Source: Candidatus Omnitrophota bacterium (GTDB lineage Bacteria > Omnitrophota > Gorgyraeia > Zapsychrales > Fredricksoniimonadaceae). Taken from it: DNA of 64,000 nucleotides. The stretch lies in contig CAIOTT010000049.1 in assembly GCA_903861305.1 (NCBI GenBank), positions 88,246 to 152,245 of the forward strand, written 5' to 3'. A program made the position numbers and the translations under genes. The notes beneath the pieces are model-generated. The model worked only from the letters and a program-made list of their open reading frames with translations, ran no database searches and had not been told where the DNA came from. Positions 27,931 to 59,820 of this stretch are shown here, piece by piece. Every line of letters begins with the position of its first letter. The stretch's first letter is position 1.

Positions 27931-28004
27931 GGGCCTATAGCTCAGTCGGTTAGAGCAGGAGACTCATAATCTCTTGGTCCCTGGTTCGAGTCCAGGTGGG
28001 CCCA
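27931..28004 (+). tRNA. tRNA-Met (anticodon CAT; could be an elongator, or the Ile2/lysidine type)
   Basis: gggcctatagctcagtcggttagagcaggagactCATaatctcttggtccctggttcgagtccaggtgggccca. The cloverleaf is consistent: a 7-bp acceptor stem, a GTTCGAGTCC T-arm, and no encoded CCA. Confidence 0.8.
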
Positions 28005-28038
28005 GATTTGTTATAATATTGTTCCAGGCCGTTATTTC

Positions 28039-28115
28039 GGACGCATAGCTCAGCTGGTTAGAGCGCTGCCCTCACATGGCAGAGGTCGAAGGTTCAAGTC
28101 CTTCTGCGTCCACCA
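28039..28115 (+). tRNA. tRNA-Val (anticodon CAC)
   Basis: ggacgcatagctcagctggttagagcgctgccctCACatggcagaggtcgaaggttcaagtccttctgcgtccacca. The anticodon loop is ctCACat. The 3' CCA is encoded. Confidence 0.8.
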
Positions 28116-29087: not shown

Positions 29088-29557
29088 TCTCCTGGGAGAT
29101 CTTTTCTGACGGGGCCTGCAGCGGTAATCCGGGCCCCGCGGCCATCGGGGCCGTGATCCGCCGGGATGGCGTGATCGTTAAAGAGATATCCGAACCTATC
29201 GGCGTTGCGACAAATAATATCGCTGAATATCGGGCGTTCATCCGCGGGATCGAAGCGGCGCAGGCACTTGGCGCCGAGCAGGTCAAGTTACGCACCGACA
29301 GCGAGCTTTTGTTTTATCAGATCAAAGGCAAGTACAAAGTCAAGCATGTCAATATGAAGCCTTTGTATGAAAAGGCTGTGGCGCTTTTAAAGCGTTTCAA
29401 GAATGTCGAATGCAAGGTGGTCCCCCGGGAGCAGAATCAGGAAGCTGACCGGCTGGCCACATCCGCTCTTAAAAAGAATGTTTTGCAGAACGCAAGCCAC
29501 GACGACCGCCCCGATGTGTTCATCATGGGGGAGGAAAGTCCGAGCTCCAAAGGATAG
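29084..29557 (+). CDS. rnhA: Ribonuclease H (type I)
   Basis: ISWEIFSDGACSGNPGPAAIGAVI...TNNIAEYRAFIRGIEAA...NQEADRLA contains the conserved DEDD catalytic-residue context. The last ~25 codons overlap the 5' end of rnpB. Confidence 0.85.
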   Translation: MISWEIFSDGACSGNPGPAAIGAVIRRDGVIVKEISEPIGVATNNIAEYRAFIRGIEAAQALGAEQVKLRTDSELLFYQIKGKYKVKHVNMKPLYEKAVALLKRFKNVECKVVPREQNQEADRLATSALKKNVLQNASHDDRPDVFIMGEESPSSKG

Positions 29558-29868
29558 CGCACCCAGATAATGCTGGGGACGTTCTGTTTTGCTTACGCAA
29601 ATGCAGGGCGGGCGAATAGAGCCACAGGGACGAACCCCTTCAGTGGGGGGTGAAACGGGCGATCTCTGCGCGGAGCAAGGCCAAATAGAGGAGAGATCCT
29701 GCTGCCATGAAAGTGGCCGGGATGCGGGGCTATCCGTCCCGTTATATCCTCGGGTAGGCCGCAAGAGTCCTGGAGGCAACTCCGGGAGTAAGTTGGATGG
29801 TCGTCCTTTCCGGTCAGCCGCAAGGCTCACCGAAAAGAACAGAACTCGGCTTATGTGGCGAGCGTTCA
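29486..29868 (+). ncRNA. rnpB: RNase P RNA (bacterial type A)
   Basis: The P4 strand GGAAAGTCCGAGCTCC starts at 29533. The 3' consensus is ...GAACAGAACTCGGCTTA. P1 pairing is agaacgcaagccacg (29486-29500) with tgtggcgagcgttc (29854-29867). Both ends are approximate to within ±10 nt. Confidence 0.8.
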
Positions 29869-29919
29869 GCAAAAAGTGAAAAAATGATTTTCTAAAGTTG
29901 AACAAACAAGGAGAAGTAG

Positions 29920-43800: not shown

Positions 43801-46642
43801 AGTCGGTTTGTTGAACCCGATGGAGACGCTGTTTAAGGCATATATCAAATTAGAGCAAGGTTGGAAGTTGATCGATGATCAAATGAAAGCTATTGATGTT
43901 GTAAGTAAGATGCTTGGCATTCAATCAAGGGAGCTTATTGAGAAAATGAAATCGGCCCAATTGATGGAACAGCCGGATGGTCAACCCTTTAAGAAGGCGC
44001 TATTGGAGCTTATTTATCCACTGGGTGATTCTGTCAGGATGGTGGGTATCAAGTCTGAATTCAAGTTTTACGGGACATTGCAGCAGATCGATTTGAAGAA
44101 ATTATATCAGGAGCTTCCTGGGGTTTTCGGGAATAATGCTGCAGGGTTTAATAAATCAGAACAATGGGATGCGTTGATCGCCGGCGCGCACAATGACATT
44201 TATAGCGCGATTGAACAAAGCCGTCGGGGCGAGCTTCAAGGACCCGCGAAGCATCAGGCTGGAGAACCTTCTGATGTTGTGCTCCCGCAAGGGGGAGCGC
44301 AAGATCCGTTGGTCAATTGGTTTGTCACCAGGATCATGTCGCGGTTGAAGTGGTTTATTCAGGGCAACAAGAAGATGATCCTGGAGAATGATGTTGAACA
44401 GCTTGAGGCGCATTTCAAGATCCGGCTCATGGCGAGAAATCCTTCAGAAGCCGATCCTGAGGGCCGGGTTATTTTTGCGCCTGTAGGCAGTTCTAATGAT
44501 GCGGCGCAAGAAAAGAAGGACGCGTCAGACCATCCTGAAATGAACCCTGCATCCCGGCTTTTGCTGCCGTATACAACAACAGAAATGGCGAAATTTCAGG
44601 TCCAGGAAATTTTGCTTGATCTTGATCTTAAGGAGAAAGTTATCCCGATCCTGTTGCGCGACGTCAAAGAGGACGTTCGGGATAATATTTCTTCTGTAGA
44701 AGATAAACAGGCTTTTCTGGTCGCTGTATTGAACTCTGCTTTTAAAGCATACTGGATGAGGCATGCGATCGGTCATCCCGCGGCTGAACTGATTTTTTCC
44801 TTCTTGAAGGAGTTGTCCGGCAATGATGTCAAACGCATGGATCTTGTGCGATCAAAAATGTGGCGGGATCAGTTTTCTGTGTATCTGGGGCGTGTTGCCA
44901 AGAGGATGGTGGATGGGGTGGTCGCTGGTCCTGAAAAAACAAACAAGGAACCCTTGACCCTGAAACCAGGCATGACATTAGAGGATGCCATGTCGGCCGT
45001 GGCTGATATTGTATTGGATCCGGCGGATACTTCAGCGCGTCTTGTGGCGATGGCGGATGAGATAATGAAATTTCTCAACCAGGACGATTTTATTAATTTT
45101 GAAAAGAAAGAGTTCCTTCTGGGTGTTCTTAACCTGAGCAGGGAAGCCCGTGAAGTTTGCCGTTATGAGAACAACTCCACTAAGATGAGCCTTATCGAAG
45201 CGTTCGTTCATAAATTGACGCGTGGGGCCATTGGAAATGTGGAATTGGATCGTTATGTATTGGATCCGGATGAGTTTACACAACAATGGGACAGTGTTGT
45301 CGATGAGCTTCTCGGACCTGCACCTCTTCCAGATCAGCCTAAAAAGAGACCTGGATCCCCGATGTTGACGCCGGAAATGTCCCTGGCGTTGGCGATAGGG
45401 ACGGTGAATGAGGCGTTTCACAGGAAAGATATGTCTTATAATGATTATTTGTTGTTGCTCCGTGATGTAAAGCAGTATGTCACGCATAATATTTCTTCTG
45501 TCCACGACCAACAGTATTTTTTGTTCACGGTTTTACATCAGGGGCTGTCGATGTACGGGTTGTACTGGCATGCAAGATCATCTGCGGCGGCACCCATTGC
45601 TTTATTCCTGAAAGAATTTTCCGGCGACGTTGTTGTGGCAGAGAATATTGTGCGATCAAGGATCAGACAAAACGCGTTAGATAAGCTCCTGGACGATGCT
45701 GTCAGAAGTATATGGAGCGGGATCTTTCTGGAAAAACTTCAGAAGATGGCGTTAGAGCCGCGGGTCCTGGGCGAATTAAATAGGATCTCACAGGTCGCGT
45801 TGGCAGACGGCCCATTTGACGGGAATTCCTGGGTGTGGGGGGCGGCGCAGAAGATCGGGTTATTGAAGATCACCCCAACGGAGTTCCTCGTTGACCTGAC
45901 CATGGCGCGTTTTTTGGATAATGCGATAACCGTTGATGAGAAGGATCGCGGACGGGGGCATATCCTTGTGCCTGGGGAGCAGAGGCTTGTGCCGGAGATG
46001 ACGACGGCGCGCGCGGTGGATCTGGTCGATCAGATCTTCCTTGCTCCCGATGTCACCCCAGGGCGTCTTGTGGCGCTGGTTGATGAAATACGGAGATTCC
46101 TTGGTCAGTCGAGGTTGTTGAGGGATGACAAAATGGAGTTCCTGGAGCATGTATTTTTTAGTAGTGTCGAGACGCGTGAACTTGCCCGAGACAACAAAAA
46201 TACCCGGAAAATGAACGCCATGGCCGTATTTCTCAAGGAACTGTCGGGTGGTGTTATTGGGGAAGCGCAGATGGACCGTTACGCGCTGTCTCGTAATATG
46301 CAGCCCGATTATTATGGGGACCCGGATGCATTTAAATGGCAATGGCGCAAGGTTGTGGATGACATTGTGAGATCAATGGAGCAATCAGATCTGGCGCAAG
46401 ATACGCCTGCAGCTAAAGTCAACGGTGGTATCGACATGAATGGGAAGAAGATGACACTTGATGTGGCACGTGAAGGCAAGGGCATTGAGATGAAACTCGA
46501 CCCGGCGATGGTCGCGCGGTTCGAGCGCGGCGATTTTACGGGGGTCGTGCCGGTCATTCTCAAGGTCACGCCCATTGCCAGCCCTTTGCCGCTATTGGGC
46601 ATGGGCACGTCCATGGACATTCAAGATAAGATCAGCGGGTAA
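40823..46642 (+). CDS. Member 3 of the secreted-protein paralog family: 1939-aa giant protein with signal peptide, conserved N-terminal domain, a long lower-GC central region with internal repeats, and conserved C-terminal GGIDL domain
   Basis: Signal peptide MFIRRFLSCFVCFSFVSTCLIPPAYAQTA. The N-terminal domain aligns with the paralogs (KLPQPGAMVGLSSSFMPVVLKGVHLHPENPLLFDFIVD...IPRKYFSGG). Four internal repeat units share the consensus [FL]xKELSG / hxKLTRG (...ELIFSFLKELSGNDV, ...PIALFLKEFSGDVV, ...AMAVFLKELSGGVIG, ...IEAFVHKLTRGAIG). C-terminus VNGGIDMNGKKMTLDV...LDPAMVARFERGDFTGVVPVILKV. Confidence 0.8.
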   Translation: MFIRRFLSCFVCFSFVSTCLIPPAYAQTAFKLPQPGAMVGLSSSFMPVVLKGVHLHPENPLLFDFIVDAGDSGFSFEGPQFKAESERLIKYFLASLTVKEGDQWVNLSPYEKDRMIPEDLGKTELGRDMLAQDYILKQLTASLVYPEKGLGKEFWAKVYEKAQAQFGTIDVPVDTFNKVWITADKARVLERNNTAYVVGAHLKVMLESDYMAAAQSSGVGRGGSVTRPLDNAQELTKQVMRDVIIPQIEKEVNEGNNFSQLRQIFYAMILSTWYKRALKTALLNQVYSNKSKTSGVENADPGVKEKIYAQYLEAYRKGVFNYIKEETNAAGETIPRKYFSGGLDRNLNVDQAMEVIDKAAAGDSLKGKKEAVVTAVIDAAEAFNTLYLSEQGALLLRLIRIFKRSDFHWGIYKTPVSVRLIDGQGVAKKVITVTREDWQNGIAGISDKLQHLVSLSTDVPLWMIKLKKSPYSQILSVDITPFTYEGLAREWNQGHVISTYLVSPQNKGFSYQIKIEPLQPDGLADKNKNIIWDAGSKTLRIFLDYNTPVGQFDRQKFFDGIIAMVAELQNVSIKKELEHNKTRLAHFLGLNIEAERVRDLREKRDLLHNKTGIRPEELTSVKMELALAEFQFGGDVVDLSDMPGPERQAAVTQAIRYGLIPLLAARQDVQEVLSHYPQALSARRVGPGEANQAVLSGAGVILVSPDVTANEIKEARGLSLRVRYKPLVVMVTKDVLNVDRESLDLDGKYDGIDLRFRGSLPAVLDKSSEVGNLIKYIKRKSPIPMIMISGDVNDENRDRVANGVKGEFHLTSMRAFDELENIAHTAFQHDDAMTKEEETGAAGKISPEAQNILDEIKNYAVIPLQYWPLDVTTWYGVRTAQLIIKEGFEDDPEALSALIEGAIKRSGAGFSAARMKDGRSLHDVACEIGLVDPSDGNMNVGMVRILEKIIFYGDVMFQKSDFDELPNKAHALMESSNRDGGITVPSDLSFKDAVGLLNPMETLFKAYIKLEQGWKLIDDQMKAIDVVSKMLGIQSRELIEKMKSAQLMEQPDGQPFKKALLELIYPLGDSVRMVGIKSEFKFYGTLQQIDLKKLYQELPGVFGNNAAGFNKSEQWDALIAGAHNDIYSAIEQSRRGELQGPAKHQAGEPSDVVLPQGGAQDPLVNWFVTRIMSRLKWFIQGNKKMILENDVEQLEAHFKIRLMARNPSEADPEGRVIFAPVGSSNDAAQEKKDASDHPEMNPASRLLLPYTTTEMAKFQVQEILLDLDLKEKVIPILLRDVKEDVRDNISSVEDKQAFLVAVLNSAFKAYWMRHAIGHPAAELIFSFLKELSGNDVKRMDLVRSKMWRDQFSVYLGRVAKRMVDGVVAGPEKTNKEPLTLKPGMTLEDAMSAVADIVLDPADTSARLVAMADEIMKFLNQDDFINFEKKEFLLGVLNLSREAREVCRYENNSTKMSLIEAFVHKLTRGAIGNVELDRYVLDPDEFTQQWDSVVDELLGPAPLPDQPKKRPGSPMLTPEMSLALAIGTVNEAFHRKDMSYNDYLLLLRDVKQYVTHNISSVHDQQYFLFTVLHQGLSMYGLYWHARSSAAAPIALFLKEFSGDVVVAENIVRSRIRQNALDKLLDDAVRSIWSGIFLEKLQKMALEPRVLGELNRISQVALADGPFDGNSWVWGAAQKIGLLKITPTEFLVDLTMARFLDNAITVDEKDRGRGHILVPGEQRLVPEMTTARAVDLVDQIFLAPDVTPGRLVALVDEIRRFLGQSRLLRDDKMEFLEHVFFSSVETRELARDNKNTRKMNAMAVFLKELSGGVIGEAQMDRYALSRNMQPDYYGDPDAFKWQWRKVVDDIVRSMEQSDLAQDTPAAKVNGGIDMNGKKMTLDVAREGKGIEMKLDPAMVARFERGDFTGVVPVILKVTPIASPLPLLGMGTSMDIQDKISG

Positions 46643-46657: not shown

Positions 46658-49600
46658 ATGTTCTTCAGAAGGATCATGTCAATTATTGTTTGCCTGGCGT
46701 TTATCCTTACCAGCCTGACCCCTTCAGCATATGCCCAGACAGTCTTTAATTTGCCTCAACCCGGCACCATGGTCGATCTTTCCGGTGCTTTTGCGCCGGC
46801 TGTTCTGAAAGGCGTAACCATCCATCCCGCGGATCCTTTGTTGTTTGATTTTATCGTCGATAACGGCCAAAGCGGGCTTCAGGGCCAGGCGCTGACCGAT
46901 GAGACCACCAAGCTGGTGAAATATTTCCTGGCGGGGCTGGCAGTCCCTGAAAAAGACCTTTGGGTCAACCTGTCGCCGAAAGAAAATGAGCGCGTCATGG
47001 CGGATGACCTGAGCCGCACGGATGTTGGCAGTGCGATGCTGGCGCAGGATTATATCCTGAAACAAGTGACCGCGAGTTTGATGTATCCGGAAAAAGACCT
47101 GGGGCGCAGGTTTTGGGACGAGATCTACAAGCGCGCTTATGCGCAGTTCGGCAATACCAATATGCCGGTGGATACTTTCAATAAGGTTTGGATCATGCCG
47201 GCGGAAGCAACGGTTTATCAGAACGGGAATGACGCGTTCGTCGGCCGTGCGCAGCTTAAGGTGATGCTGGAGAGTGATTTTGAGGCTGCGAAAGGCGTGG
47301 TCTCCCGGCAGGCGGCTGCCGATATCGAGCTGGCCAAGGGTGTTGTCCGTTCCGTGATCCTTCCTGTTTTGGAAAAGGAAGTCAATGAAGGCAGGAATTT
47401 TGCCCCCCTGCGCCAGGTGTTCCATTCCATGATCCTGGCCGGGTGGTACAAGAATGCCCTCAAGGAAAGCTTGCTCGCCCGGGTCTATGCCAACACGAAC
47501 AAGGTCAGCGGCATCGAGATCCCCGAGAAGGATGCCCGTGAAAAAGTGTACGCTCAGTACATGGAAGCTTACCAGAAGGGCGTGTACAACTATGTTAAGG
47601 AAGAGTTGGACCGCAATACGAACGAAGCCGTGCCCCATAAGTATTTCTCTGGTGGTATCACCGAGTTAAGTGTTGATCCCGGGAAGGCTGATGTGTCACA
47701 GGTGGATTTCAAGGGGGCTTCTACGAAGCAGTCTTATAGATTGGATGTTTCCACAGACGGGGCGCAGGAGTTGAGCCGGGCAGATCAGAAGGTTCTCGAT
47801 GGGGCAAAAACGATCATAGAAAGCTTGTTGACGGAGTCATACCAGAACGGCGATATTACGGATACCGTTTATAAAAATGCCCTTGCGAATACGTACAAGA
47901 ATCTTGTTGAATGGACGCAGGATCCGGATATTTATCGCATCGATCCCAGCATCCGTGCGGCCAATCTTGCGGCGATCCGTGACGGCCGTTGGGATGACAT
48001 TATAGAGGCGTACCGACAGGATATCCTGTTCGGGACAGCCGGCATCCGTGGAAAAGCGGTCCTTTCAGAGAAAGAATTGCAGACATTCAAGGCCGAGGGG
48101 CCCTTGGGGAATTTCCTGAAAGGTCCCAATACGATCAACACCTTCAAACTCTTGAAGACCACGCAGGGCCTCATCAAAATGGCCAGGGAGACGGGCTTAA
48201 AACGGGTTGTCATAGGCTATGACAGCCGTATCGGCGGCGCGGCATTCGCGGACATGATCGCGCGTCTTTTTATTGCCCAGTCCACGCCGGAGCATGAGTT
48301 CAAGATATTCCTTTTTGATGAAGCAAGCCCTTTTCCGGAGCTTTCTTACGGCATAACGACGGATGTGGTGAAAGGCGACATCGGTTTGCTCATTTCTGCG
48401 AGCCACAATCCCGCGGATTACAATGGCTATAAGATCACGCTGGGCAACGGGGCACAGTTGAACCAGGCCAGCAAAAATCAGGTCACGGCGGCCATTGATC
48501 AGGTCAGGAATTCCGACATTGTTATGGCTGCTTCGCTGGCCGACGCAAAACCAGGACAGCTCGTGTGGCTTGGAGGCAGTGAGGCGCTTGAGGGTAAGGA
48601 TTATTACGGGTTCGAGCGCATTGATATGCACTCATTGCATGTTGAACAAGTAAAGAAATTCATCTTGAACAAGGAAGTTGTCGTTGCACATTCCGGTGAT
48701 TTGAAGTTCGGCTTTGCAGCGTTCAATGGCGCGGGATTTAAGGCCGTGCCACGATTGTTGAGGGAGACCGGGTTCACCAACGTCAAGGTTATTGAGAAAC
48801 TTCAGAAACTCGACGGCAGTTTTCCGGCGTGGAAGTTTGGCGAACAACCGGATCCCGGCGACCCTATTTCTGCGGATATTGCTGTGAAGGAGTTCATTGC
48901 AGAATACGGCCAGCAGGTGTTTGATCTGCTGGATGCTTTGTTCGGCACTGATCCTGATGCGGACAGGATGGGGTTGAGCGTCAAGGTTCCCGAGTCCCAG
49001 CAGAAATATTTCGGGAAGTACCGGTTACTTTCCGCGAATGACGTTTGGACATTGTTAATATGGTATCGGTTGTCCATGAAAAAGCAAATGGGTCTGCTGG
49101 AAAATCCTTCTAATCATGCGGTCGCATTCAGCCACGTAACAACAGATGCCATTGAAGCTGTGGCGAAAATGTTTGGCGTCGATGCTATTGGGAAAATGCT
49201 TGATGTGACAGGCACCCTTGAAAAAGGAGATTACCTGGCGGGCCGCAGGACATGGGTTGGGTTCACTTACCTTGCGGATATATTGGAAGATGCGTATCAG
49301 ATGGGAAAGTTCGTTGAAATGCTGGCGGAGGAGTCGAACGGTGTGAGCGTGCAGGGCCATACTAAGGAAAAGGATGGGACGCTCGCCGTGATCCTTGTGG
49401 CTGAAGTTGCGGCGTATGCCAGATCTCAGGGTAAAACTTTGTTTGAACTCCTGGATGATGTCTATGCGCTGATTGGTCATTATGCCACGGCCAACAAGCC
49501 GTTGCCAAGGGTCGGGTCGTTCGAGAAAGCGGCCGGGGTCTCAGAAAAGATCAAGATCATTAAAAGATCCCAGGAATGGGGCACGAAGGCCAATGAGGAT

Positions 49601-50269
49601 GCGCATACGGACCATCCGTTCATGATCGCGGGGAAAAAGGTCCTTGGCGCTGTCGAGTTCGCTTCCGGCCGTATCGATAAGACCCATTACGCCGGTGTTC
49701 CGGATGAAGGGGTTCGTTTCTTTTTTGAAGATGAGCAGCTCCAGCCGGGGGATCCTTTTACCAATAGCCATAATTACATCACGATCCGCGCTTCAGGAAC
49801 GTCACAGGCGCTGCGGTTCTACACACAGATATTTTCCCGGGATGTGAGCCCGGAGCAGAAAGCCAAAAATTATGCTGAGGCTGAGCGCGTCGCGCTTGAA
49901 GCGCAGCGACAGATACTTGAGGAAGTCAACCTTGAGAAACATCTTCCTCCGGTCAGAGCGCAGCTTGAAAGTATTTATGCGCAAAACGAGCCTGTCGCTG
50001 ATAAAGCCCAGGATCTGGGCGGTATCGACCTCGGCCAGGGCAATTACCTCAAGGTCATCGCGACGGGAACGGCGGGCGTCCCGCAATTTGACCCTGCCCA
50101 GCTGAAACAGTTGCAGAAAGACCTGCGCGGGGTCATCCCCGTTCCGGTGGGCGTTCCTGTGCCGGTCAGTGTGCGGCCGCTCCTGGGGCTGGATCCTAAT
50201 AGCGGCAACGAGAACCTCCAGCTGAGCCAGATGGGGCCATTGACGTTTGAGGTCGAACAGGACGCATAA
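46658..50269 (+). CDS. Member 4 of the secreted-protein paralog family, fused to an alpha-D-phosphohexomutase (phosphoglucomutase/phosphomannomutase) domain
   Basis: Signal peptide MFFRRIMSIIVCLAFILTSLTPSAYAQT. Conserved N-terminal domain. Phosphohexomutase motifs: GTAGIRGKAV, the active-site Ser loop SASHNPADYNGYKI, the metal loop GTDPDADRMG and the phosphate loop IRASGTSQALR. C-terminus DLGGIDLGQGNYLKV...FDPAQLKQL...GVIPVPVGVPV. Confidence 0.8.
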   Translation: MFFRRIMSIIVCLAFILTSLTPSAYAQTVFNLPQPGTMVDLSGAFAPAVLKGVTIHPADPLLFDFIVDNGQSGLQGQALTDETTKLVKYFLAGLAVPEKDLWVNLSPKENERVMADDLSRTDVGSAMLAQDYILKQVTASLMYPEKDLGRRFWDEIYKRAYAQFGNTNMPVDTFNKVWIMPAEATVYQNGNDAFVGRAQLKVMLESDFEAAKGVVSRQAAADIELAKGVVRSVILPVLEKEVNEGRNFAPLRQVFHSMILAGWYKNALKESLLARVYANTNKVSGIEIPEKDAREKVYAQYMEAYQKGVYNYVKEELDRNTNEAVPHKYFSGGITELSVDPGKADVSQVDFKGASTKQSYRLDVSTDGAQELSRADQKVLDGAKTIIESLLTESYQNGDITDTVYKNALANTYKNLVEWTQDPDIYRIDPSIRAANLAAIRDGRWDDIIEAYRQDILFGTAGIRGKAVLSEKELQTFKAEGPLGNFLKGPNTINTFKLLKTTQGLIKMARETGLKRVVIGYDSRIGGAAFADMIARLFIAQSTPEHEFKIFLFDEASPFPELSYGITTDVVKGDIGLLISASHNPADYNGYKITLGNGAQLNQASKNQVTAAIDQVRNSDIVMAASLADAKPGQLVWLGGSEALEGKDYYGFERIDMHSLHVEQVKKFILNKEVVVAHSGDLKFGFAAFNGAGFKAVPRLLRETGFTNVKVIEKLQKLDGSFPAWKFGEQPDPGDPISADIAVKEFIAEYGQQVFDLLDALFGTDPDADRMGLSVKVPESQQKYFGKYRLLSANDVWTLLIWYRLSMKKQMGLLENPSNHAVAFSHVTTDAIEAVAKMFGVDAIGKMLDVTGTLEKGDYLAGRRTWVGFTYLADILEDAYQMGKFVEMLAEESNGVSVQGHTKEKDGTLAVILVAEVAAYARSQGKTLFELLDDVYALIGHYATANKPLPRVGSFEKAAGVSEKIKIIKRSQEWGTKANEDAHTDHPFMIAGKKVLGAVEFASGRIDKTHYAGVPDEGVRFFFEDEQLQPGDPFTNSHNYITIRASGTSQALRFYTQIFSRDVSPEQKAKNYAEAERVALEAQRQILEEVNLEKHLPPVRAQLESIYAQNEPVADKAQDLGGIDLGQGNYLKVIATGTAGVPQFDPAQLKQLQKDLRGVIPVPVGVPVPVSVRPLLGLDPNSGNENLQLSQMGPLTFEVEQDA

Positions 50270-53474: not shown

Positions 53475-53939
53475 ATGGCTGCGAAGAATGAAACATGGCT
53501 GATCGCTCTTATTGTCCTCGTTGCCGGGGTACTGATCGTACTCTCCTTTTCCAGGAACAAGCCTGAAAAACAGGTGCCGGCGCCGGTGGCGGTTGCCGCT
53601 GATATAAAGAATATCAAGCCCGACCATTCGACGGCTGATATGCAGAAGATCTCAGCGGCCAAGCCTGCGCCCGCTATTGTTGAGATGCCCAAAACGGTTG
53701 TTTCCAGGGATGCTTTCGCGGTCCAGGTTTTTTCATTCAAGGAAAAAGGGCGCGCGGATGCGGCGCTCAAACTGCTCAAGGATAAAGGATATACGGCTTA
53801 TATCATGATGAGCGATCTTGGCCCACGGGGTGTTTTCTATCGTGTCCGTGTCGGATCATTTGCCAGTGAGGCCGAGGCCAAGAAGAATCTTGAAAATATC
53901 AGCAAGGATTTCAAGAGCGGCATTATTGTTTCAGAGTGA
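53475..53939 (+). CDS. SPOR domain-containing membrane-anchored protein
   Basis: N-terminal TM helix. The C-terminal SPOR-like segment is FAVQVFSFKEKGRADAALKLLKDKGYTAYIMMSD...YRVRVGSFASEAEAKKNLENI. Confidence 0.65.
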   Translation: MAAKNETWLIALIVLVAGVLIVLSFSRNKPEKQVPAPVAVAADIKNIKPDHSTADMQKISAAKPAPAIVEMPKTVVSRDAFAVQVFSFKEKGRADAALKLLKDKGYTAYIMMSDLGPRGVFYRVRVGSFASEAEAKKNLENISKDFKSGIIVSE

Positions 53940-53955
53940 AGAAATATAAGGGCCC

Positions 53956-54495
53956 ATGCTAAGAAAGATATTGCCCTTTGTTCTGGTCTTTTTCATGCTC
54001 GCGGCATCAGGATGCGCTACCGGGGCGGCCCGTAAGGGTCACAGGAACATGGCTGATCCTCTGGGCCCGTGGAGCGATGCGGACACCCGCTTTGTGGCTC
54101 AGGAGATGGTCGAGGCATGTACGGCCGGGGCGTGGGTCGGGCGGTTCAACAAGGCCCGGGGGCAGGACCCTCTTGTCAGTGTCGGCAATGTTACCGGCCG
54201 GACCGATGGGCATACGGACGCGGGCGTCTTTGTCGAGGGCCTGCAGATGGCTCTTATCAATTCCGGCAGGGTGAAGTTTGTGGCGGCTGCGGCGGGGCAG
54301 CCGCAAGGGGCTGATGGACGGGTGGACTATCTCCTGCAGGGTGGTATCAATTACGCCGTGGATGGATCACGGGGGCAGCGAGCGTTCACGTTCCAGGCGG
54401 ATATCGAGCTCATTGACCCTGTTACGCGTGAAAAGGTATGGGCCGGCCAGAAAAAGGTCAGGAAAGTTATCAAGGGGCTCCGTTATTCTTTATGA
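53956..54495 (+). CDS. Lipoprotein, LpoB-like (penicillin-binding protein activator family, COG3417-like)
   Basis: Lipobox AASGC. The core LVSVGNVTGRTDGHTDAGVFVEGLQMALINSGRVKFVA resembles the LpoB segment VDSVNNRTNGSLNAAEATETLRNALANNGKFTLV. Confidence 0.45.
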   Translation: MLRKILPFVLVFFMLAASGCATGAARKGHRNMADPLGPWSDADTRFVAQEMVEACTAGAWVGRFNKARGQDPLVSVGNVTGRTDGHTDAGVFVEGLQMALINSGRVKFVAAAAGQPQGADGRVDYLLQGGINYAVDGSRGQRAFTFQADIELIDPVTREKVWAGQKKVRKVIKGLRYSL

Positions 54496-54537
54496 ACCGC
54501 AAGCGCAATAACATATAACACAGCATGACAGGTGTGA

Positions 54538-54924
54538 ATGAAGATCATTATTGTTGACGATTCGCTTCTGGACCGTAAGCTTTTGGCGAGGACTCTGGTC
54601 AATCTCGGCGTCACGAACGAGATATTGCAGGCCGACAACGGTGACGCGGGGATGAGCCTTATTGTCGAGAATCTGGGGGATATCGCTTTGATCTTCCTTG
54701 ACTACCAGATGCCGAACATCACAGGAGTGGAACTGATGGAGGGCCTGGTGAAGGTGCCTCTGACTGCCGACCTGCCCATCATCATGGTCACCGCCTCCGC
54801 GTCCGAAGAAAGCAAGCAGACCGCGTATCGGGCGAACCCCAGACTGGCGGGATACGTTCTCAAGCCATTCAAGCCCGACCAGCTTTTGGCCGCGATCAAG
54901 CCTTACGCCAGCATCTCGTCCTGA
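54538..54924 (+). CDS. Response regulator receiver domain protein (CheY-like, single domain)
   Basis: MKIIIVDDSLLDRKLL...FLDYQMPNITG...KPF is present. Confidence 0.8.
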   Translation: MKIIIVDDSLLDRKLLARTLVNLGVTNEILQADNGDAGMSLIVENLGDIALIFLDYQMPNITGVELMEGLVKVPLTADLPIIMVTASASEESKQTAYRANPRLAGYVLKPFKPDQLLAAIKPYASISS

Positions 54925-54925
54925 T

Positions 54926-55504
54926 ATGGTGAATCCTTATCCCGATGGTCTTTCAGGTTATGCCCGTGTTCTCGCGGCATCGGCGCGTAAGATGCTGAAG
55001 ATCAAGGGAGGACTGGAACTTTCGAGGGATCCCGTCCTGCGCGAAAAGGAGATCGTTTCTTTCTGCCGGCACATTCGCGTGGACGCCCTTGAAAAATTCA
55101 ACGCGCGGGCAGTTTTTTCGGTCGTCAAGTTCTACAGTAACGTCGCAGCGATGGAAGCTGATACGCCTGTCGGAGCGCTCATTGTCTTTATCGAGGCGGA
55201 GTTCGTCGCGAAGCTTTTGTGGCATCTGGAATACCCGAGCATCGATGAAGACGATGATGAGGGCATTCTTGACGGTTGCGGAACGCTGACGAACCTTATC
55301 GCGGGGCATTTCGTCAAGGACCTTCACGCGCTGGGCTGTGTTCACCTGCAGATGTCGCATTTTGACAGTTATTTCAACACGGTCCTTGATGGCGTCGCGT
55401 TCGCGCCCGACCAGACAAGGAAGTATGAGATCAATTTCTTTATCAATGGCGAGAAGCGGCTGGTCGCAGAATTGACCATGAGCCATATCCCCAGGATAAA
55501 TTGA
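54926..55504 (+). CDS. Hypothetical protein between two receiver-domain genes
   Basis: 192-aa ORF coupled to both neighbours. No motif is recognised. Confidence 0.4.
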   Translation: MVNPYPDGLSGYARVLAASARKMLKIKGGLELSRDPVLREKEIVSFCRHIRVDALEKFNARAVFSVVKFYSNVAAMEADTPVGALIVFIEAEFVAKLLWHLEYPSIDEDDDEGILDGCGTLTNLIAGHFVKDLHALGCVHLQMSHFDSYFNTVLDGVAFAPDQTRKYEINFFINGEKRLVAELTMSHIPRIN

Positions 55505-55869
55505 GGAAAATTATGCCAGGAACCATCCTGATCGTTGACGATGACCCGACCCTTGTTCACGCGCTGGGGCAGTTCTTTGAAAAGGAAGGTTACCGCGCGC
55601 TCACGTCCCCTGACGGGGTCGACGCATTGAAACAGGTTGAGGCCCATCATCCTGATCTGATCATCCTTGATATCCAGATGCCCAGGCTGCACGGCTATTC
55701 ATTCCTTTTTGAACTTCGCAAGATCGACGGCAATCAGGACATCCCCGTGATCGTCCTCACTTCTTTTGTTGAAATGGGAGGGATGTTCCAGGCTGAAGGC
55801 GTCAAAGAGTTCCTTGTTAAGCCCTGCACGCCGCAGCTGCTTCTTGAAAAGGTAAAAAAATATATTTAA
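55501..55869 (+). CDS. Response regulator receiver domain protein (CheY-like, single domain)
   Basis: ILIVDDDPTLVHAL...ILDIQMPRLHG...KPC is present. Confidence 0.8.
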   Translation: MRKIMPGTILIVDDDPTLVHALGQFFEKEGYRALTSPDGVDALKQVEAHHPDLIILDIQMPRLHGYSFLFELRKIDGNQDIPVIVLTSFVEMGGMFQAEGVKEFLVKPCTPQLLLEKVKKYI

Positions 55870-55884
55870 AATGGAGTTGGTTGA

Positions 55885-56496
55885 ATGCTGTCGAAGCGTG
55901 AATTGACCATAGTGGTGGCGATCGCCATCGTTGTCCTTGTCCTGGGGGTTCGGGCATGGCAGAAAACCACGATCCCGTCGGCAAAAGGACCTGTCATGTC
56001 AGGCAGGTCGTTGGGTTCACCCGGGGCCAGGGTCAAGATCGTGGAATTCACGGATTTCCAGTGCCCGGCATGTGCCAGCGCGGCCAAGGTCGTCCACAGG
56101 GTCATGCAGGAGAATGAGTCTAAGCTGTTCGTCGAGTTGAAGTATTTCCCTTTGCCCATGCACAAGAATTCCAGGAAGGCGGCGGTCGCCGCTGAATGCG
56201 CCCGGGTACAGGGTAAGTTCTGGCCTATGCAGGAGCTGCTGTTCCGGGATCAGGGGATCTGGGCGATCCCTGATGCGCCTGAGGATAATTTCCTGAGCCT
56301 TGCCAGGTCCGTCGGGATCGATGAGCAGAAGATGATGCGTTGTATGGCATCCGCAGCGGCGGAAAGAACGGTGGCGGATGATCTGCAGGAAGGAAAAAAT
56401 CTTGGCGTCAAGGCCACGCCGACATTCTTTGTCAACGGTAAGGCGGTGGTGGGATCAGCGAATTTTGAACAGACGCTGAAAGAGGCTCTGCGGTAA
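55885..56496 (+). CDS. DsbA-family thiol:disulfide oxidoreductase (thioredoxin fold, CPAC active site)
   Basis: N-terminal TM anchor. VEFTDFQCPACASAAKV is present. Confidence 0.8.
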   Translation: MLSKRELTIVVAIAIVVLVLGVRAWQKTTIPSAKGPVMSGRSLGSPGARVKIVEFTDFQCPACASAAKVVHRVMQENESKLFVELKYFPLPMHKNSRKAAVAAECARVQGKFWPMQELLFRDQGIWAIPDAPEDNFLSLARSVGIDEQKMMRCMASAAAERTVADDLQEGKNLGVKATPTFFVNGKAVVGSANFEQTLKEALR

Positions 56497-56497
56497 T

Positions 56498-56953
56498 ATG
56501 ATCAACAACATTATTTTAGGATGCCGCTTTCTGATCGCGGCGCTTTTTATTGTTTCAGGCGGAGAGAAACTGCTTGGATCGTCGGAGGATTTTTATTATG
56601 TGCTTCAGGCGTATGCCGTTTTTCCGGATCCCCTGGCGCGCTTGATCTCCTTTGTCTTTCCGTGGGTCGAATTCAGCACCGGCGTCTTTCTGGCGCTGGG
56701 GTTGTGGTTACGGCCCGTCCTGGCTTTGCTCACCGTCATATCAGGGTCGTTCATCCTGGTGGTGGGCCAGGCGATCGTCAGGGGGCTTCCCATCGATAAT
56801 TGCGGTTGTTTCGGGGAGCTTGTCCATCTACCGCTGCGCGGGGTGATCGTCGTCGATGTGACGACCCTTATCCTGGCGCTTGTCTGCCTGAAACATGGCG
56901 AGGCGGTCTCTTTGTTCAGTGTTGACGGTCATTATAAAAAACATCAGCCATGA
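56498..56953 (+). CDS. DoxX/MauE-family membrane protein (likely redox partner of the adjacent DsbA-like protein)
   Basis: 151 aa with 4 TM helices. LIAALFIVSGGEKLL is present. Confidence 0.6.
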   Translation: MINNIILGCRFLIAALFIVSGGEKLLGSSEDFYYVLQAYAVFPDPLARLISFVFPWVEFSTGVFLALGLWLRPVLALLTVISGSFILVVGQAIVRGLPIDNCGCFGELVHLPLRGVIVVDVTTLILALVCLKHGEAVSLFSVDGHYKKHQP

Positions 56954-58452
56954 ACCCTGTCCGCATCCTTTCAGGCGTTGTGGCCATAGCGGTGTTCCTT
57001 GCCATGACACATTCATTTTCATTCGCCCAGGAAAACATTAAGGAAGCCAGGCTGGCCGGGAGTTGGTATCCCGGGACCCGTGCTGAACTCACACGGATGC
57101 TGGACGTGTTCTTTGCGGGTGTTGGCGACCCGGGTACGTCCGGTGCTGTCGACATCGGGGTGATCGTGTCGCCTCATGCGGGGTATCCTTTTTCCGGTCC
57201 GGTAGCGGCTTATGGGTTCAAGGCTGTCCAGTCAAAAAATGTTTCTACCGTTATTATCCTCGCGCCAACGCATCATTTTGCCTTCCAGGGAGCGGCGATC
57301 TGGCCCGAGGGCGCTTTTACCACGCCCCTGGGCACCGTGGCCGTGGATAAGGAGCTCGCCGATAAAGTCATCGCGGCCGACAAGCTTTTTAGTTTTCGCA
57401 GGGATATTTTTGAAGGGAAGCCGGGCCAGCCTGAGAATTCAGTTGAAACCCAGATCCCTTTCATCCAAAGGGCTTTTCCCCAGGCGAAGATCGTGCCCAT
57501 TATCATGGGGTATCCGCCGGACCCCCGGGTGATCGAAGCTACGGCGGCCGCCCTTGTCAAGGCCGTCGGTGACAGGGAGGATGTCCTGGTGGATGTGAGC
57601 GTCGACCAGTCGCATTTTCATCCGCTGGCGCAGGCCAACAGCATTGATAAGGCGGGGCTTGATGCCATTGAGAAATTCGATATCCAGGGGCTGTGGGATG
57701 GCCATGCCGCCGGCCGGATGGAGGTGGATGGGTTCCATGTGGTCACAGCGGCCATGATCTATGCCAGGGCCAGGGGGTATTCCAGCGCGAAGGTCCTGCG
57801 GCACGCCACATCAGCGGATGTCACGGCGGATGCCTCAAGCGTTGTCGGGTACGCGTCGATAATTTTTTTCAGGAAGCTTGAAAGACCCCAGGGCGTTGCG
57901 CCCTTGACAGCGGCGCATAAAGAACGCCTGCTCGCGATCGCCCGCGCAAGCGTGGATGCATTCGTGAAGACGGGCAAAGCCCCGGCTGTTGATGAGAAAG
58001 ATGCCCGTCTTCTTGAGGAAGAGGGGGCGTTCGTGACGTTGAAAAAACAGGGCAGCCTGCGCGGATGCATCGGCAATATTATCGGGCAGGGCCCTTTGTT
58101 CATGACGGTGCGTGATATGGCGGTGGCCGCGGCGAGCGAAGACCCGCGTTTTTCGCCCGTTAGTCCTGCCGAGTTGAAGGATGTCGATGTTGAGGTGTCG
58201 GTCCTTTCAAAACCGCGTGCTGTAAAGAACGCAGGGGAGATCATCATGGGCACGCATGGCGTTATCGTGCGCCGCGGGGCCAGGGGCGGTGTTTTCCTGC
58301 CCCAGGTGGCCACGGAAACGGGGTGGAGCAAGGAGCGATTTTTGTCGGAGCTATGTTCCCAGAAAGCCGGTTTACCGCCCGATTGCTGGCAGGATCCCGC
58401 GACGACGCTTGAAGTTTTTACGGCTGAAGTATTCGGAGAGAAGGAGAAATAG
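56950..58452 (+). CDS. Fusion of Memo-like (AmmeMemoRadiSam system protein B) and AMMECR1 (system protein A) domains, with an N-terminal signal peptide
   Basis: Signal peptide MNPVRILSGVVAIAVFLAMTHSFSFAQE. The Memo region has SPHAGYPFSGPVAAYGF. The AMMECR1 region has GAFVTLKKQGSLRGCIGNI. Confidence 0.75.
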   Translation: MNPVRILSGVVAIAVFLAMTHSFSFAQENIKEARLAGSWYPGTRAELTRMLDVFFAGVGDPGTSGAVDIGVIVSPHAGYPFSGPVAAYGFKAVQSKNVSTVIILAPTHHFAFQGAAIWPEGAFTTPLGTVAVDKELADKVIAADKLFSFRRDIFEGKPGQPENSVETQIPFIQRAFPQAKIVPIIMGYPPDPRVIEATAAALVKAVGDREDVLVDVSVDQSHFHPLAQANSIDKAGLDAIEKFDIQGLWDGHAAGRMEVDGFHVVTAAMIYARARGYSSAKVLRHATSADVTADASSVVGYASIIFFRKLERPQGVAPLTAAHKERLLAIARASVDAFVKTGKAPAVDEKDARLLEEEGAFVTLKKQGSLRGCIGNIIGQGPLFMTVRDMAVAAASEDPRFSPVSPAELKDVDVEVSVLSKPRAVKNAGEIIMGTHGVIVRRGARGGVFLPQVATETGWSKERFLSELCSQKAGLPPDCWQDPATTLEVFTAEVFGEKEK

Positions 58453-58453
58453 A

Positions 58454-58708
58454 ATGACAGGCAAGGCGAAACGAGAAAAAAGAAAGATCTTCAAGGAACA
58501 GGAACAGCAGGACAAAGGACAGAAAAAACCTCTTTTGTCCGATCGGCAAAAACGAGCGCTGCTTATTGTTCTGGTTGTCCTTTTATTCACCGTCCCTGTG
58601 GCGGATATCCTGCGTTGCAAGGCGGCTTGCATGAAGCGCGTCAAAACGCCTTATCCGGAGATCGCCTGCCGGTACGAATGTCCCTGGCCGTGGCAGAAAA
58701 GTGAATGA
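58454..58708 (+). CDS. Small basic membrane-anchored Cys-rich protein (hypothetical)
   Basis: 84 aa: MTGKAKREKRK..., TM helix ALLIVLVVLLFTVPV, then CKAACMKRVKTPYPEIACRYECPWPWQ. An AAGGAG RBS lies at 58441. Confidence 0.4.
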   Translation: MTGKAKREKRKIFKEQEQQDKGQKKPLLSDRQKRALLIVLVVLLFTVPVADILRCKAACMKRVKTPYPEIACRYECPWPWQKSE

Positions 58709-59820
58709 GAACGTCTGTTGAAGCCCGCACGATCTGGATCTGTTCGTTCCTGATCATGGCCGCCGGGTTATTCACCCTTTACAGCGCCTCTTACGATAAT
58801 CTGCGCGTCAAAGGTCAGGTTTTTTATGATCAACTGGGATGCGCGGTCTTTGCCCTTGCGGTGATGTTCGTTCTCAGCCGCATCAATTACCGGGCATTTT
58901 ATGATGCCGCGTATCCGTTGTATTTCATCAGCGTCTTGTTGCTTGTTTTTGTCCTTGTGGCTGGCCGGTCCGCGCTTGGTGCCACCCGCTGGTTCAATGT
59001 GGCCGGCATTTCCTTCCAGCCGTCCGAACTTTCCAAGATCGCCGTCATTCTCATGCTCGGCCGATATTTCAGCAAACGCAATCCAAAGCTTTCGTTCGAT
59101 ATCCGCAGCTCTTTTTATGCGCTGGGGAGGGACCTGTTGTATCCGTTCTTTCTCGTGCTGTTGAGCCTCGTGTTCATTTTTAAACAGCCTGATCTTGGTA
59201 CGGCTATTTTGGTGTATGGGATATTCCTGGTCATGCTGTTTGCCAGCGGCCTCGATTGGAAGCCCTTCGCCTGCCTTTTGGGTGTGAGTGTCCTCATGGT
59301 GCCATTGGCCTGGAGTTTTTTATTGAAGTCTTACCAGAAAGACAGGCTTCTCGTTTTTTTAAATCCTAATATCGACCCTTTGGGGGCGGGTTATACCATT
59401 ATCCAGTCAAGGATCGCCATTGGTTCAGGACAGCTGTTTGGTAAAGGATGGCTGGCCGGGACCCAAAATCAGCTTAACTTCCTGCCAGAGCGCCACACAG
59501 ACTTTATTTTTGCGGTGATCGGCGAAGAGTGGGGTTTCGTCGGAGCAGCCCTGCTTTTGGGGTGTTATTTCATGCTTATTTACACGTCCATATTGGTCGC
59601 CGGGCGCATCAAGGACAAGTTCGGTTATCTTGTTGCCGTGGGTATTGTTTCGATCCTGGCGCTCCAGGTGGTCATCAATATGAGCATGACCATGGGGCTA
59701 AGCCCGGTTGTTGGCATCACCCTGCCCCTGATCAGCTATGGCAGGACATCGTTCCTTGTATTTGCGATCATGATAGGCTTCCTCCTGAACCTTTGTCATC
59801 AGCGGCGTTCTACGTTGTGA
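58705..59820 (+). CDS. rodA: FtsW/RodA/SpoVE family peptidoglycan glycosyltransferase (SEDS protein)
   Basis: Ten TM helices. Contains FQPSELSKIAVIL and IQSRIAIGSGQLFGKG. Confidence 0.85.
   Translation: MRTSVEARTIWICSFLIMAAGLFTLYSASYDNLRVKGQVFYDQLGCAVFALAVMFVLSRINYRAFYDAAYPLYFISVLLLVFVLVAGRSALGATRWFNVAGISFQPSELSKIAVILMLGRYFSKRNPKLSFDIRSSFYALGRDLLYPFFLVLLSLVFIFKQPDLGTAILVYGIFLVMLFASGLDWKPFACLLGVSVLMVPLAWSFLLKSYQKDRLLVFLNPNIDPLGAGYTIIQSRIAIGSGQLFGKGWLAGTQNQLNFLPERHTDFIFAVIGEEWGFVGAALLLGCYFMLIYTSILVAGRIKDKFGYLVAVGIVSILALQVVINMSMTMGLSPVVGITLPLISYGRTSFLVFAIMIGFLLNLCHQRRSTL

Follow-up and report, generated by a model that had tools for sequence, protein, structure and literature searches.

A predicted exported Memo-AMMECR1 fusion coupled to a DsbA/MauE pair in a Candidatus Omnitrophota bacterium

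The stretch of DNA analysed here, referred to as the window, comprises 64,000 nucleotides (nt) from a Candidatus Omnitrophota bacterium (NCBI GenBank assembly GCA_903861305.1, contig CAIOTT010000049.1, positions 88,246 to 152,245 of the forward strand). Between positions 55885 and 59820, five translationally coupled open reading frames (ORFs) follow one another on the same (+) strand and encode a DsbA-like protein, MauE, a Memo-AMMECR1 fusion, a peptide of 84 amino acids (aa) and RodA. The fusion unites two components of the AmmeMemoRadiSam system (TIGR04335, protein A; TIGR04336, protein B; TIGR04337, a radical S-adenosylmethionine (SAM) enzyme), and the analysis points to it as a member of a large bacterial branch in which such fusions are, as a rule, predicted to be exported. 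With junctions of +1, -4, +1 and -4 nt across the run, the tight coupling of the fusion to DsbA, DoxX/MauE and a small Cys-rich membrane protein that had been described in an earlier, sequence-only reading of the locus is borne out, and every detail of its ORF description was matched when the run was rechecked. The features of the run are as follows.

55885-56496 (+): DsbA-like thioredoxin-fold protein, 203 aa, with an N-terminal hydrophobic anchor and CPAC at aa 60-63 (nt 56062-56073)
56498-56953 (+): MauE/DoxX-family four-helix membrane protein, 151 aa, with CGCFG at aa 102-106 (nt 56801-56815)
56950-58452 (+): Memo-AMMECR1 fusion, 500 aa
56950-57027 (+): predicted Sec-type signal peptide of the fusion, aa 1-26, MNPVRILSGVVAIAVFLAMTHSFSFA, followed by QE
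57043-57861 (+): Memo (LigB-superfamily) domain of the fusion, aa 32-304, Pfam Memo
57934-58434 (+): AMMECR1 domain of the fusion, aa 329-495, Pfam AMMECR1
58454-58708 (+): putative single-pass membrane peptide, 84 aa, with C-x3-C at aa 55-59 and 72-76 and no family
58705-59820 (+): RodA (SEDS peptidoglycan polymerase), 371 aa, the last coupled gene, with a 4-nt overlap with the small gene

The Memo-AMMECR1 fusion and its N-terminus

Both halves of the fusion score far above their family cut-offs, in agreement with the sequence-only reading, which had placed the B (Memo) and A (AMMECR1) components in one 500-aa protein. The Pfam matches to Memo and AMMECR1 reach 187.8 and 183.2 bits, respectively, and those to the NCBIfam models reach 229.1 bits for TIGR04336 (cut-off 26) and 180.9 bits for TIGR04335 (cut-off 99). 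The AMMECR1 half carries LRGCIG at aa 370-375, which includes Cys373, and DPRF at aa 398-401; the corresponding RGChG and DxRa motifs, as defined in PMC2034487, are invariant in all 101 grouped relatives. The same invariance across these relatives extends to H76, H108, E162, D219, H222, R371, C373, D398 and R400. Judged from its sequence, the fusion looks like a catalytically intact enzyme.

The AlphaFold2 model of the fusion has a mean predicted local distance difference test score (pLDDT) of 91.3, and a Foldseek comparison matches it to human MEMO1 (3bcz and 7kq8) with E values of about 2e-17 and a target TM-score of about 0.8. The fold and the PHAGY and PxHH histidines are thus shared with MEMO1 (3bcz; iron-bound, 7kq8; copper-bound, 7l5c), whereas the identity is only 21% and MEMO1 is a cytosolic, stand-alone protein. 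The AMMECR1 half resembles the archaeal proteins PH0010 (1vaj), MM0484 (1zq7) and ST0229 (1wsc), with identities of 35-41% and root-mean-square deviations of 1.8-4.6 Å (41% and 1.8 Å for PH0010), and LRGCIG, DPRF and C...KAGLPxDCW are common to all of them and the fusion. Unlike the fusion, these archaeal proteins stand alone, are presumed to be cytoplasmic and have no signal peptide, their alignment beginning at residues 2-11 of the entries in the PDB.

There is a further difference from MEMO1 at the metal site of the Memo domain. In MEMO1, this site consists of two histidines and a cysteine (H49, H81 and C244); both histidines are kept in the fusion as H76 and H108, while the position of the cysteine, assigned by motif alignment (xxCGxxP versus VDGFHVV), is occupied by Asp260 (MEVDGF, 57718-57735). 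The EHS motif of MEMO1 likewise becomes ENS (N163; 57433-57441), a change that co-varies with that from Cys to Asp. The residue equivalent to Cys244 is cysteine in 26 of 26 fusions linked to a radical SAM gene, and aspartate in the sub-clade to which the window protein belongs, which comprises 18 loci linked to DsbA/MauE and eight from Smithellaceae; the loci that encode the 84-aa peptide appear to fall within this sub-clade. The resulting His/His/carboxylate set resembles that of true LigB-type dioxygenases.

The N-terminus of the fusion is composed of MNPVR, ILSGVVAIAVFLAM and THSFSFA, followed by QE, that is, a basic n-region, a hydrophobic core of 14 residues, and a c-region with small residues at positions -3 and -1 (S-F-A before Q). 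Homologues down to 45% identity retain this layout and the small residues in spite of differing sequences. Because the ATG of the fusion overlaps the stop codon of MauE (ATGA) and the layout is conserved in homologues, the signal peptide is not an artefact of the choice of start codon. In the AlphaFold2 model, residues 3-20 form a lone helix apart from the folded body, after which comes a disordered linker (residues 21-26) with pLDDT below 50. The segment fits a Sec-type cleavable signal peptide, as the sequence-only reading had proposed; here and throughout, such calls were made by a hydropathy heuristic, inspection and conservation rather than by a dedicated signal-peptide predictor.

Alternatively, this segment could be an uncleaved anchor, leaving both domains in the cytoplasm as a membrane-tethered form of the classical system. 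The heuristic nature of the call leaves some room for this explanation, and relatives from Smithellaceae apparently function without any hydrophobic segment. Yet the core spans only about 14 residues, has a basic residue before it and a polar stretch with small -3 and -1 residues after it, and is conserved as a pattern and not as a sequence. Furthermore, some homologues have a lipobox-like cysteine in the equivalent region, which would be sensible only for exported proteins; the positive charge on the N-terminal side predicts an N-in/C-out orientation; and the partners described below (the anchored DsbA, the CXC loop of MauE, and CcdA) act at the outer face of the membrane. We consider an uncleaved anchor very improbable.

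Export across the family and the radical SAM partner

The sequence-only reading had taken the system to be normally cytoplasmic and the topology of this fusion to be unusual, and in this it proved mistaken, as export signals are the rule in the nearest bacterial branch. A few truncated entries aside, the 120 closest database homologues are all fusions of about 480-520 aa, and nearly all have a signal-like N-terminus; the exceptions include Smithella-type sequences and shortened start calls. Among 80 related genome loci, a hydrophobic core (9-residue hydropathy of at least 2.1) is present in every relative outside Smithellaceae whose N-terminus is intact. An exhaustive search of 1.84 billion cluster representatives returned 2,449 proteins at E<=1e-30. 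The best 150 of these (37-59% identity) are nearly all full-length fusions, apart from a few fragments or longer proteins, and at least 110 of the 150 have a hydrophobic N-terminal signal, in some cases with a lipobox-like cysteine; the rest are mostly short start calls, or proteins in which a signal is visible yet was missed by the motif anchor. Exported fusions are named in metagenome-assembled genomes (MAGs) labelled Omnitrophota, Elusimicrobiota, Chlamydiota and Thermodesulfobacteriota. From these sequences, export of the Memo-AMMECR1 fusion is predicted to be the common state, and indeed the rule, of a large and barely described bacterial branch.

The fusion of the two genes is itself already known, a joining of AMMECR1 to a "ring-opening dioxygenase" gene having been reported in 2007 (PMC2034487) in the work of Balaji and Aravind that also described the AMMECR1-dioxygenase-radical SAM neighbourhood. 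The "Memo-Ammecr1 systems" of Burroughs et al. 2019 enter here as they are cited in PMC7159879. No description of exported Memo-AMMECR1 fusions, or of TIGR04337 enzymes with a twin-arginine (Tat) signal, was found in the literature covered, which did not include the likeliest source, Burroughs et al. 2019 (PMC6664185).

As the sequence-only reading had stated, no radical SAM gene lies next to the fusion, and none was detected anywhere in the window: the CxxxCxxC motif occurs in no ORF of at least 100 aa, and tblastn with two genuine TIGR04337 enzymes found nothing in the window or in the related loci L001-L080. No homologue of TIGR04337, CcdA, DUF362 or QueH was found in these 64 kb, nor in the 80 related loci (up to 21 kb each) except for two DUF362-Fer4 matches in Smithellaceae (L010 and L012). 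Similarly, a radical SAM gene adjoins the fusion in none of the 80 closest genome loci, four of which have unrelated, sporadic radical SAM-like ORFs 4-10 kb away.

However, the further statement that the fusion is without a radical SAM partner, taken functionally, does not stand, since related exported fusions adjoin TIGR04337 genes and many TIGR04337 genes stand apart. At locus L085, a 350-aa protein (4952-6004) matches TIGR04337 with 395 bits (cut-off 220); its gene shares 4 nt with the start of a fusion that bears a signal, and a DsbD_TM/CcdA-like gene lies 3' of this fusion. In a metagenome scan anchored on this enzyme, which yielded 80 loci, the radical SAM gene of 29 has as its neighbour a fusion or a Memo ORF that the end of the contig truncates, and a signal is present in all 25 of these whose N-terminus is intact. 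In 11 metagenome loci, DsbD_TM comes third, after the radical SAM gene and the fusion, and a twelfth (L114) has DsbD_TM beside the fusion in another arrangement. Overall, the operon of radical SAM gene, signal-bearing fusion and CcdA-like gene (DsbD_TM or DsbD_2) is present at L085, L089, L091, L094-L096, L101, L102, L108, L122, L126, L145 and L168-L171. In two MAGs labelled Omnitrophota (GCA_023818965.1 and GCA_023818575.1), it is extended to the order Mut7-C (an RNase-domain gene), radical SAM, signal-bearing fusion, DsbD_2, QueH and a PCMT/TrmI-like methyltransferase. In the cultured Geobacter sp. OR-1 (L172), a fusion whose signal is of the lipoprotein type comes after the radical SAM gene, and there is no CcdA-like neighbour. 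These exported radical SAM-fusion-CcdA operons (L085, L088-L145, L168-L171) share the fusion architecture, the N-terminal signal and a thiol-redox membrane partner with the window locus, but differ in having retained TIGR04337, in many cases bearing a twin-arginine signal, and in relying on CcdA/DsbD_2, in place of which the window has DsbA and MauE together with the twin-CX3C peptide.

The absence of a radical SAM neighbour in the window is therefore no proof of independence from radical SAM chemistry, as exported fusions elsewhere are coupled to TIGR04337. This leads to a second explanation, in which the system still has three components: a TIGR04337 enzyme encoded elsewhere in the genome would partner the exported fusion, by working alongside it in one compartment or by acting on a precursor or on the pre-protein before export, and DsbA/MauE would be an add-on. 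About half of the TIGR04337-anchored loci, many of them on short contigs, have no Memo or AMMECR1 gene within 6 kb, which makes a separately encoded partner plausible, and TIGR04337 enzymes do occur in MAGs labelled Omnitrophota/Omnitrophica (P0421, P0436, P0451, P0458, P0474, P0490 and P0494). In addition, all AMMECR1 and most Memo catalytic residues of the fusion are unchanged. On the other hand, the search results for the window and the 80 related loci given above count against this explanation, and the altered Memo site of the window sub-clade (Cys to Asp and His to Asn) would fit a change of chemistry. We regard a radical SAM partner encoded elsewhere as a genuine possibility, though one that falls short of probable. 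Anaerobic sulfatase-maturating radical SAM enzymes, which act on sulfatases that are exported later, provide a precedent by analogy only. They have no sequence relationship to the enzymes considered here, and unlike them, the related radical SAM enzymes appear to carry export signals of their own.

This last observation comes from the 120 best homologues of the L085 enzyme (P0388-P0507), of which 103 have a hydrophobic N-terminal segment before the conserved domain. A twin-arginine pattern is present in 46 of the 120, and most of these look classical, as in the MKRRDFLKLLLCSSLAMKAEA segment, followed by RE, of Geobacter sp. OR-1; signal-type TIGR04337 enzymes were located at L085:4952-6004, L168:5001-6077 and L172:6001-7101. 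From its sequence, the radical SAM component of this branch thus looks to be itself exported or membrane-targeted. A Tat-targeted radical SAM enzyme would be very unusual, because SAM and low-potential reductants are not expected in the periplasm.

A separate observation concerns DUF362 proteins, usually fused to a 4Fe-4S ferredoxin domain, which are encoded 1-3 genes from the fusion or its radical SAM partner in unrelated lineages (L081-L085; L012:6506-7525, - strand; L165:3756-4655). A conserved partner outside the lineage labelled Omnitrophota was considered and rejected, as the Thermodesulfobacteriota loci show only DUF362-Fer4, EF-G and Dtd neighbours.

The DsbA/MauE pair, the small peptide and their conservation

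The identification of a membrane-anchored CPAC DsbA with an upstream DoxX/MauE protein, made in the sequence-only reading, agrees with the family searches. The DsbA-like protein matches Pfam Thioredoxin_4 (87.6 bits) and DSBA (64.3 bits), with DsbA 4pwp/4pwo and BdbD 3eu3 as its nearest solved relatives. Its neighbour matches Pfam MauE (77.3 bits, cut-off 27) and, more weakly, DoxX, and its CGCFG motif lies between predicted helices 3 and 4, the topology having been judged by eye from the hydrophobic segments. MauE proteins of two phyla can stand in for E. coli DsbB by means of a CXC site in the helix 3-4 loop, the consensus of which is usually CGC followed by F-G, and MauE has been proposed as a widespread, general disulfide-forming protein (bioRxiv 10.64898/2026.03.05.709764). 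The motif of the window protein matches this consensus for the DsbB-like MauE active site exactly. An older claim of MauE as a reductase is mentioned in the same preprint, so that electrons might also flow in the opposite direction. Together, the CXC loop of MauE and the anchored CXXC thioredoxin-fold partner, predicted to face the periplasm, fit an oxidative folding pair of the MauE/DsbA type. The four helices, the CGC and F-G in the helix 3-4 loop and the adjacent anchored CXXC protein are held in common with DsbB-like MauE, classical MauE/MauD and DsbB/DsbA; unlike classical MauE, the window protein lies outside a methylamine-utilisation cluster and is translationally coupled to Memo-AMMECR1.

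A structural disulfide in the fusion was considered as a general reason for its linkage to DsbA, and was rejected. The cysteines of the C-terminal C...DCW element, C469 and C479, are ancestral and also occur in the cytoplasmic archaeal PH0010, and hence they are no adaptation to DsbA. Furthermore, C479 is present in only half of the DsbA/MauE-linked clade, and no other clade-wide cysteine pair exists.

The 84-aa peptide, whose ATG is preceded by AAGGAG, has a basic N-terminus, one hydrophobic helix and, after the helix, the tail RCKAACMKRVKTPYPEIACRYECPWPW, which contains four cysteines in a twin-CX3C arrangement. It has no match in Pfam or NCBIfam. Homologues occur in 17 related loci, always between the fusion and RodA, and C55/C59 and C72/C76 are invariant in all 18 sequences, in accordance with the C-x3-C...C-x3-C tail noted in the sequence-only reading. 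The tail, RCKAACxKRVKTPYPEIACxYxCPWPW, is near-identical across loci, while the basic N-terminal region varies. We read the protein as a single-pass membrane peptide with an external twin-CX3C segment, and with such a segment it would be an obvious candidate substrate of DsbA/MauE. Two CX3C motifs, at a spacing that would allow pairing as a helical hairpin in an oxidising compartment with a disulfide relay, are also found in the small Tim chaperones of the mitochondrial intermembrane space. This likeness is an analogy only: the 84-aa protein is bacterial and membrane-anchored, and there is no detectable homology.

The neighbourhood comparison that the sequence-only reading had put forward as a check shows that the DsbA-MauE-fusion triad is kept in about 60 other genomes. 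A DsbA-like gene, MauE or both lie directly 5' of the fusion in 61 of the 80 genome loci, on contigs labelled mostly Omnitrophota and in some cases "Planctomycetales" or Elusimicrobia; all loci of this DsbA/MauE-linked clade come from MAGs. The distance from the MauE stop to the fusion start has a median of -4 nt over 59 loci, and falls between -40 and +30 nt in 51 of them. The triad stays while its outer flanks vary. On the 5' side there are response regulators, a PEP-carboxykinase-like gene or glycoside hydrolases, and on the 3' side RodA is preceded in some loci by the 84-aa peptide and in others by a 156-aa membrane protein and a DCC1-like fusion. The latter arrangement belongs to deeper members (for example L031, L041 and L046), in which the 156-aa protein, which has no family, lies between the fusion and RodA, and a polytopic membrane protein of about 430 aa ends in a DCC1-like thiol-disulfide oxidoreductase (PF04134), a third type of thiol-redox neighbour. 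No homologue of the 156-aa protein or of the membrane-DCC1-like fusion was found in the window.

A neighbour-joining tree of 112 fusions, rooted at the midpoint and lacking support values, gathers the DsbA/MauE-linked fusions into a single clade, whose sister is a clade linked to radical SAM and CcdA. The association of DsbA/MauE with the fusion is thus old, tightly coupled and of single origin. Nested inside this clade, which is labelled Omnitrophota, are eight fusions from Smithellaceae/"Deltaproteobacteria" (L009-L014, L017 and L022) that are 60-64% identical to the window protein, and this nesting suggests that they were acquired by horizontal transfer. Their signal no longer has its hydrophobic core, although a remnant of the cleavage region (...SFADDKVK) is still there, and they have no DsbA/MauE neighbours.

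RodA (TIGR02210, rodA_shape, 386.9 bits; cut-off 336.7) adjoins the module in closer relatives and is no more than a few kb from it in many other relatives, and type IV pilus/type II secretion system (T2SS) ATPase genes lie 3' of it in the window. Upstream of the module are the following genes.

53475-55869 (+): SPOR-domain protein, LpoB-like lipoprotein, response regulator, CheX-like protein and response regulator, from Pfam matches

These genes accompany the module in many relatives, as shown by synteny in L001-L027 and other loci, and are probably part of the same envelope transcription unit as the DsbA-like gene. No convincing terminator was seen between them and that gene in promoter and terminator scans, which were themselves uninformative.

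A periplasmic enzyme with a thiol-redox partner

The explanation that we favour, and hold to be probable if only modestly so, is that the fusion acts in the periplasm as a catalytically intact enzyme, and that its thiol-redox partner in the membrane, formerly CcdA, is now DsbA/MauE. Under this explanation, the Sec-exported Memo-AMMECR1 protein would work in the periplasm, as a member of the large AmmeMemoRadiSam branch whose B/A fusion is predicted to be exported as a rule; in the lineage that is sister to its own, the fusion shares its operon with genes for a TIGR04337 radical SAM enzyme and a CcdA-like thiol-disulfide membrane transporter. The exported enzyme would need a membrane thiol-redox relay, which would probably act on or around the invariant AMMECR1 Cys373, or else on the small Cys-rich partner. 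In the clade of the window protein, this relay would have been swapped from CcdA to DsbA/MauE, and simultaneously Asp would have taken the place of Cys in the His/His/Cys metal site of Memo, giving His/His/Asp. The substrate would be a periplasmic or envelope-face molecule rather than a cytoplasmic RNA. The presence of three types of thiol-redox neighbour in related lineages (DsbD_TM/DsbD_2, DsbA with MauE, and DCC1-like) speaks for this explanation, as does the loss of both the signal core and DsbA/MauE in the Smithellaceae homologues.

Several points weigh against it. CcdA is normally reductive, while DsbA/MauE is oxidative, such that a swap of equivalent relays is not straightforward, and the fusion lacks the additional cysteine pair, shared by the whole clade, that would single it out as a substrate of DsbA. 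The link to DsbA/MauE has a single origin within one clade; the pair is missing from seven signal-bearing relatives whose upstream sequence is long enough to show it, and exported fusions outside these lineages have unrelated neighbours (EF-G and Dtd, or DUF362). Finally, the signal calls rest on a hydropathy heuristic and inspection, and the supporting tree on neighbour-joining with midpoint rooting and no support values.

From the single origin of the link it follows that its persistence could reflect inherited gene order in a conserved envelope region that runs from SPOR and LpoB to RodA and the pilus genes. In this third explanation, DsbA/MauE would be a general oxidative-folding pair within an envelope operon, the fusion would have no specific redox dependence, and the real substrates of DsbA would be the twin-CX3C peptide and other envelope proteins. 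The proposal of MauE as a generalist replacement for DsbB agrees with such a role, as does the synteny of the whole region (SPOR, LpoB, response regulators, RodA and type IV pilus/T2SS genes) across the clade, and the clade members without the pair at this position and the lack of a dedicated disulfide pair in the fusion also count in its favour. Inheritance alone, however, does not readily account for a 4-nt overlap between MauE and the fusion that is kept down to 45% identity while the outer flanks change. Nor does it account for the sister clade, which independently pairs the fusion with the thiol-redox membrane protein CcdA, for the addition of a DCC1-like oxidoreductase in deeper members, or for the coincidence of signal-peptide loss with loss of the pair in Smithellaceae. 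We consider neighbourhood by inheritance alone to be possible but doubtful.

A bolder form of the favoured, periplasmic explanation would dispense with radical SAM chemistry altogether. The fusion would then be a periplasmic descendant of AmmeMemoRadiSam that acts on an envelope-face substrate, with electrons from Cys373 passing through a dedicated DsbA/MauE pair to the quinone pool, the twin-CX3C peptide serving as a membrane adaptor, and the change from Cys to Asp retuning the metal site. The substrate might be, for example, a polyprenyl-linked or peptidoglycan-precursor molecule, an idea that arises from the RodA, LpoB, SPOR and AsmA-like neighbours here and from PMT_2/IspD at L087. This proposal we regard as unlikely as a whole. 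If it were true, then together with the Tat-signal radical SAM enzymes it would place the action of the ancestral bacterial system outside the cytoplasm, and the RNA-modification hypothesis would be overturned for this branch.

Compared with AmmeMemoRadiSam as defined by its three families, the window fusion keeps the RGChG and DxRa motifs and the Memo histidine ligands. It is unlike that system in its signal peptide, its coupling to DsbA/MauE and the Asp in place of the Memo Cys ligand, and in that no radical SAM gene is present in the 64 kb or in any locus of its clade. What sets this locus apart is the lack of an adjacent radical SAM gene, the DsbA/MauE pair instead of CcdA, the twin-CX3C peptide, and the Asp at the metal site.

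The conservation of Memo and AMMECR1 extends from archaea to humans, and both have links to disease, but no reaction has been established for either of them. In the leading bioinformatic hypothesis, they take part in the modification of bases in the cytoplasm together with a radical SAM enzyme, a role that could not apply to the window enzyme, because it is predicted to be periplasmic. Since export appears to be the rule in a large bacterial branch, the substrate should be sought in the cell envelope, and the repeated pairing with CcdA, DsbA/MauE or a DCC1-like protein points to cysteine-based redox chemistry. The locus is of more interest for what it tells about the family than as a single case. 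MauE, a newly described analogue of DsbB, gains a candidate dedicated client, and cultured relatives such as Geobacter sp. OR-1 make the question testable.

Two exported fusions have neighbours of a different kind. At L086 (2718-3638, - strand), the fusion adjoins an HTTM (vitamin K-dependent carboxylase-like) membrane protein, and at L087 (7400-9963), it adjoins a PMT_2/TPR glycosyltransferase and IspD; these neighbours hint at a lipid- or isoprenoid-linked envelope context.

No RNA families or repeats of relevance were found in the module region. Elsewhere in the window, two tRNA genes and a bacterial class A RNase P RNA (144 bits) at 27931-28112 and 29490-29869 (+) represent ordinary chromosomal content. 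Two very large ORFs lie next to one another on the + strand: that at 40823-46642 (1,939 aa) has no Pfam match at E<=0.001, and that at 46658-50269 (1,203 aa) contains phosphoglucomutase/phosphomannomutase domains according to precomputed Pfam hits.

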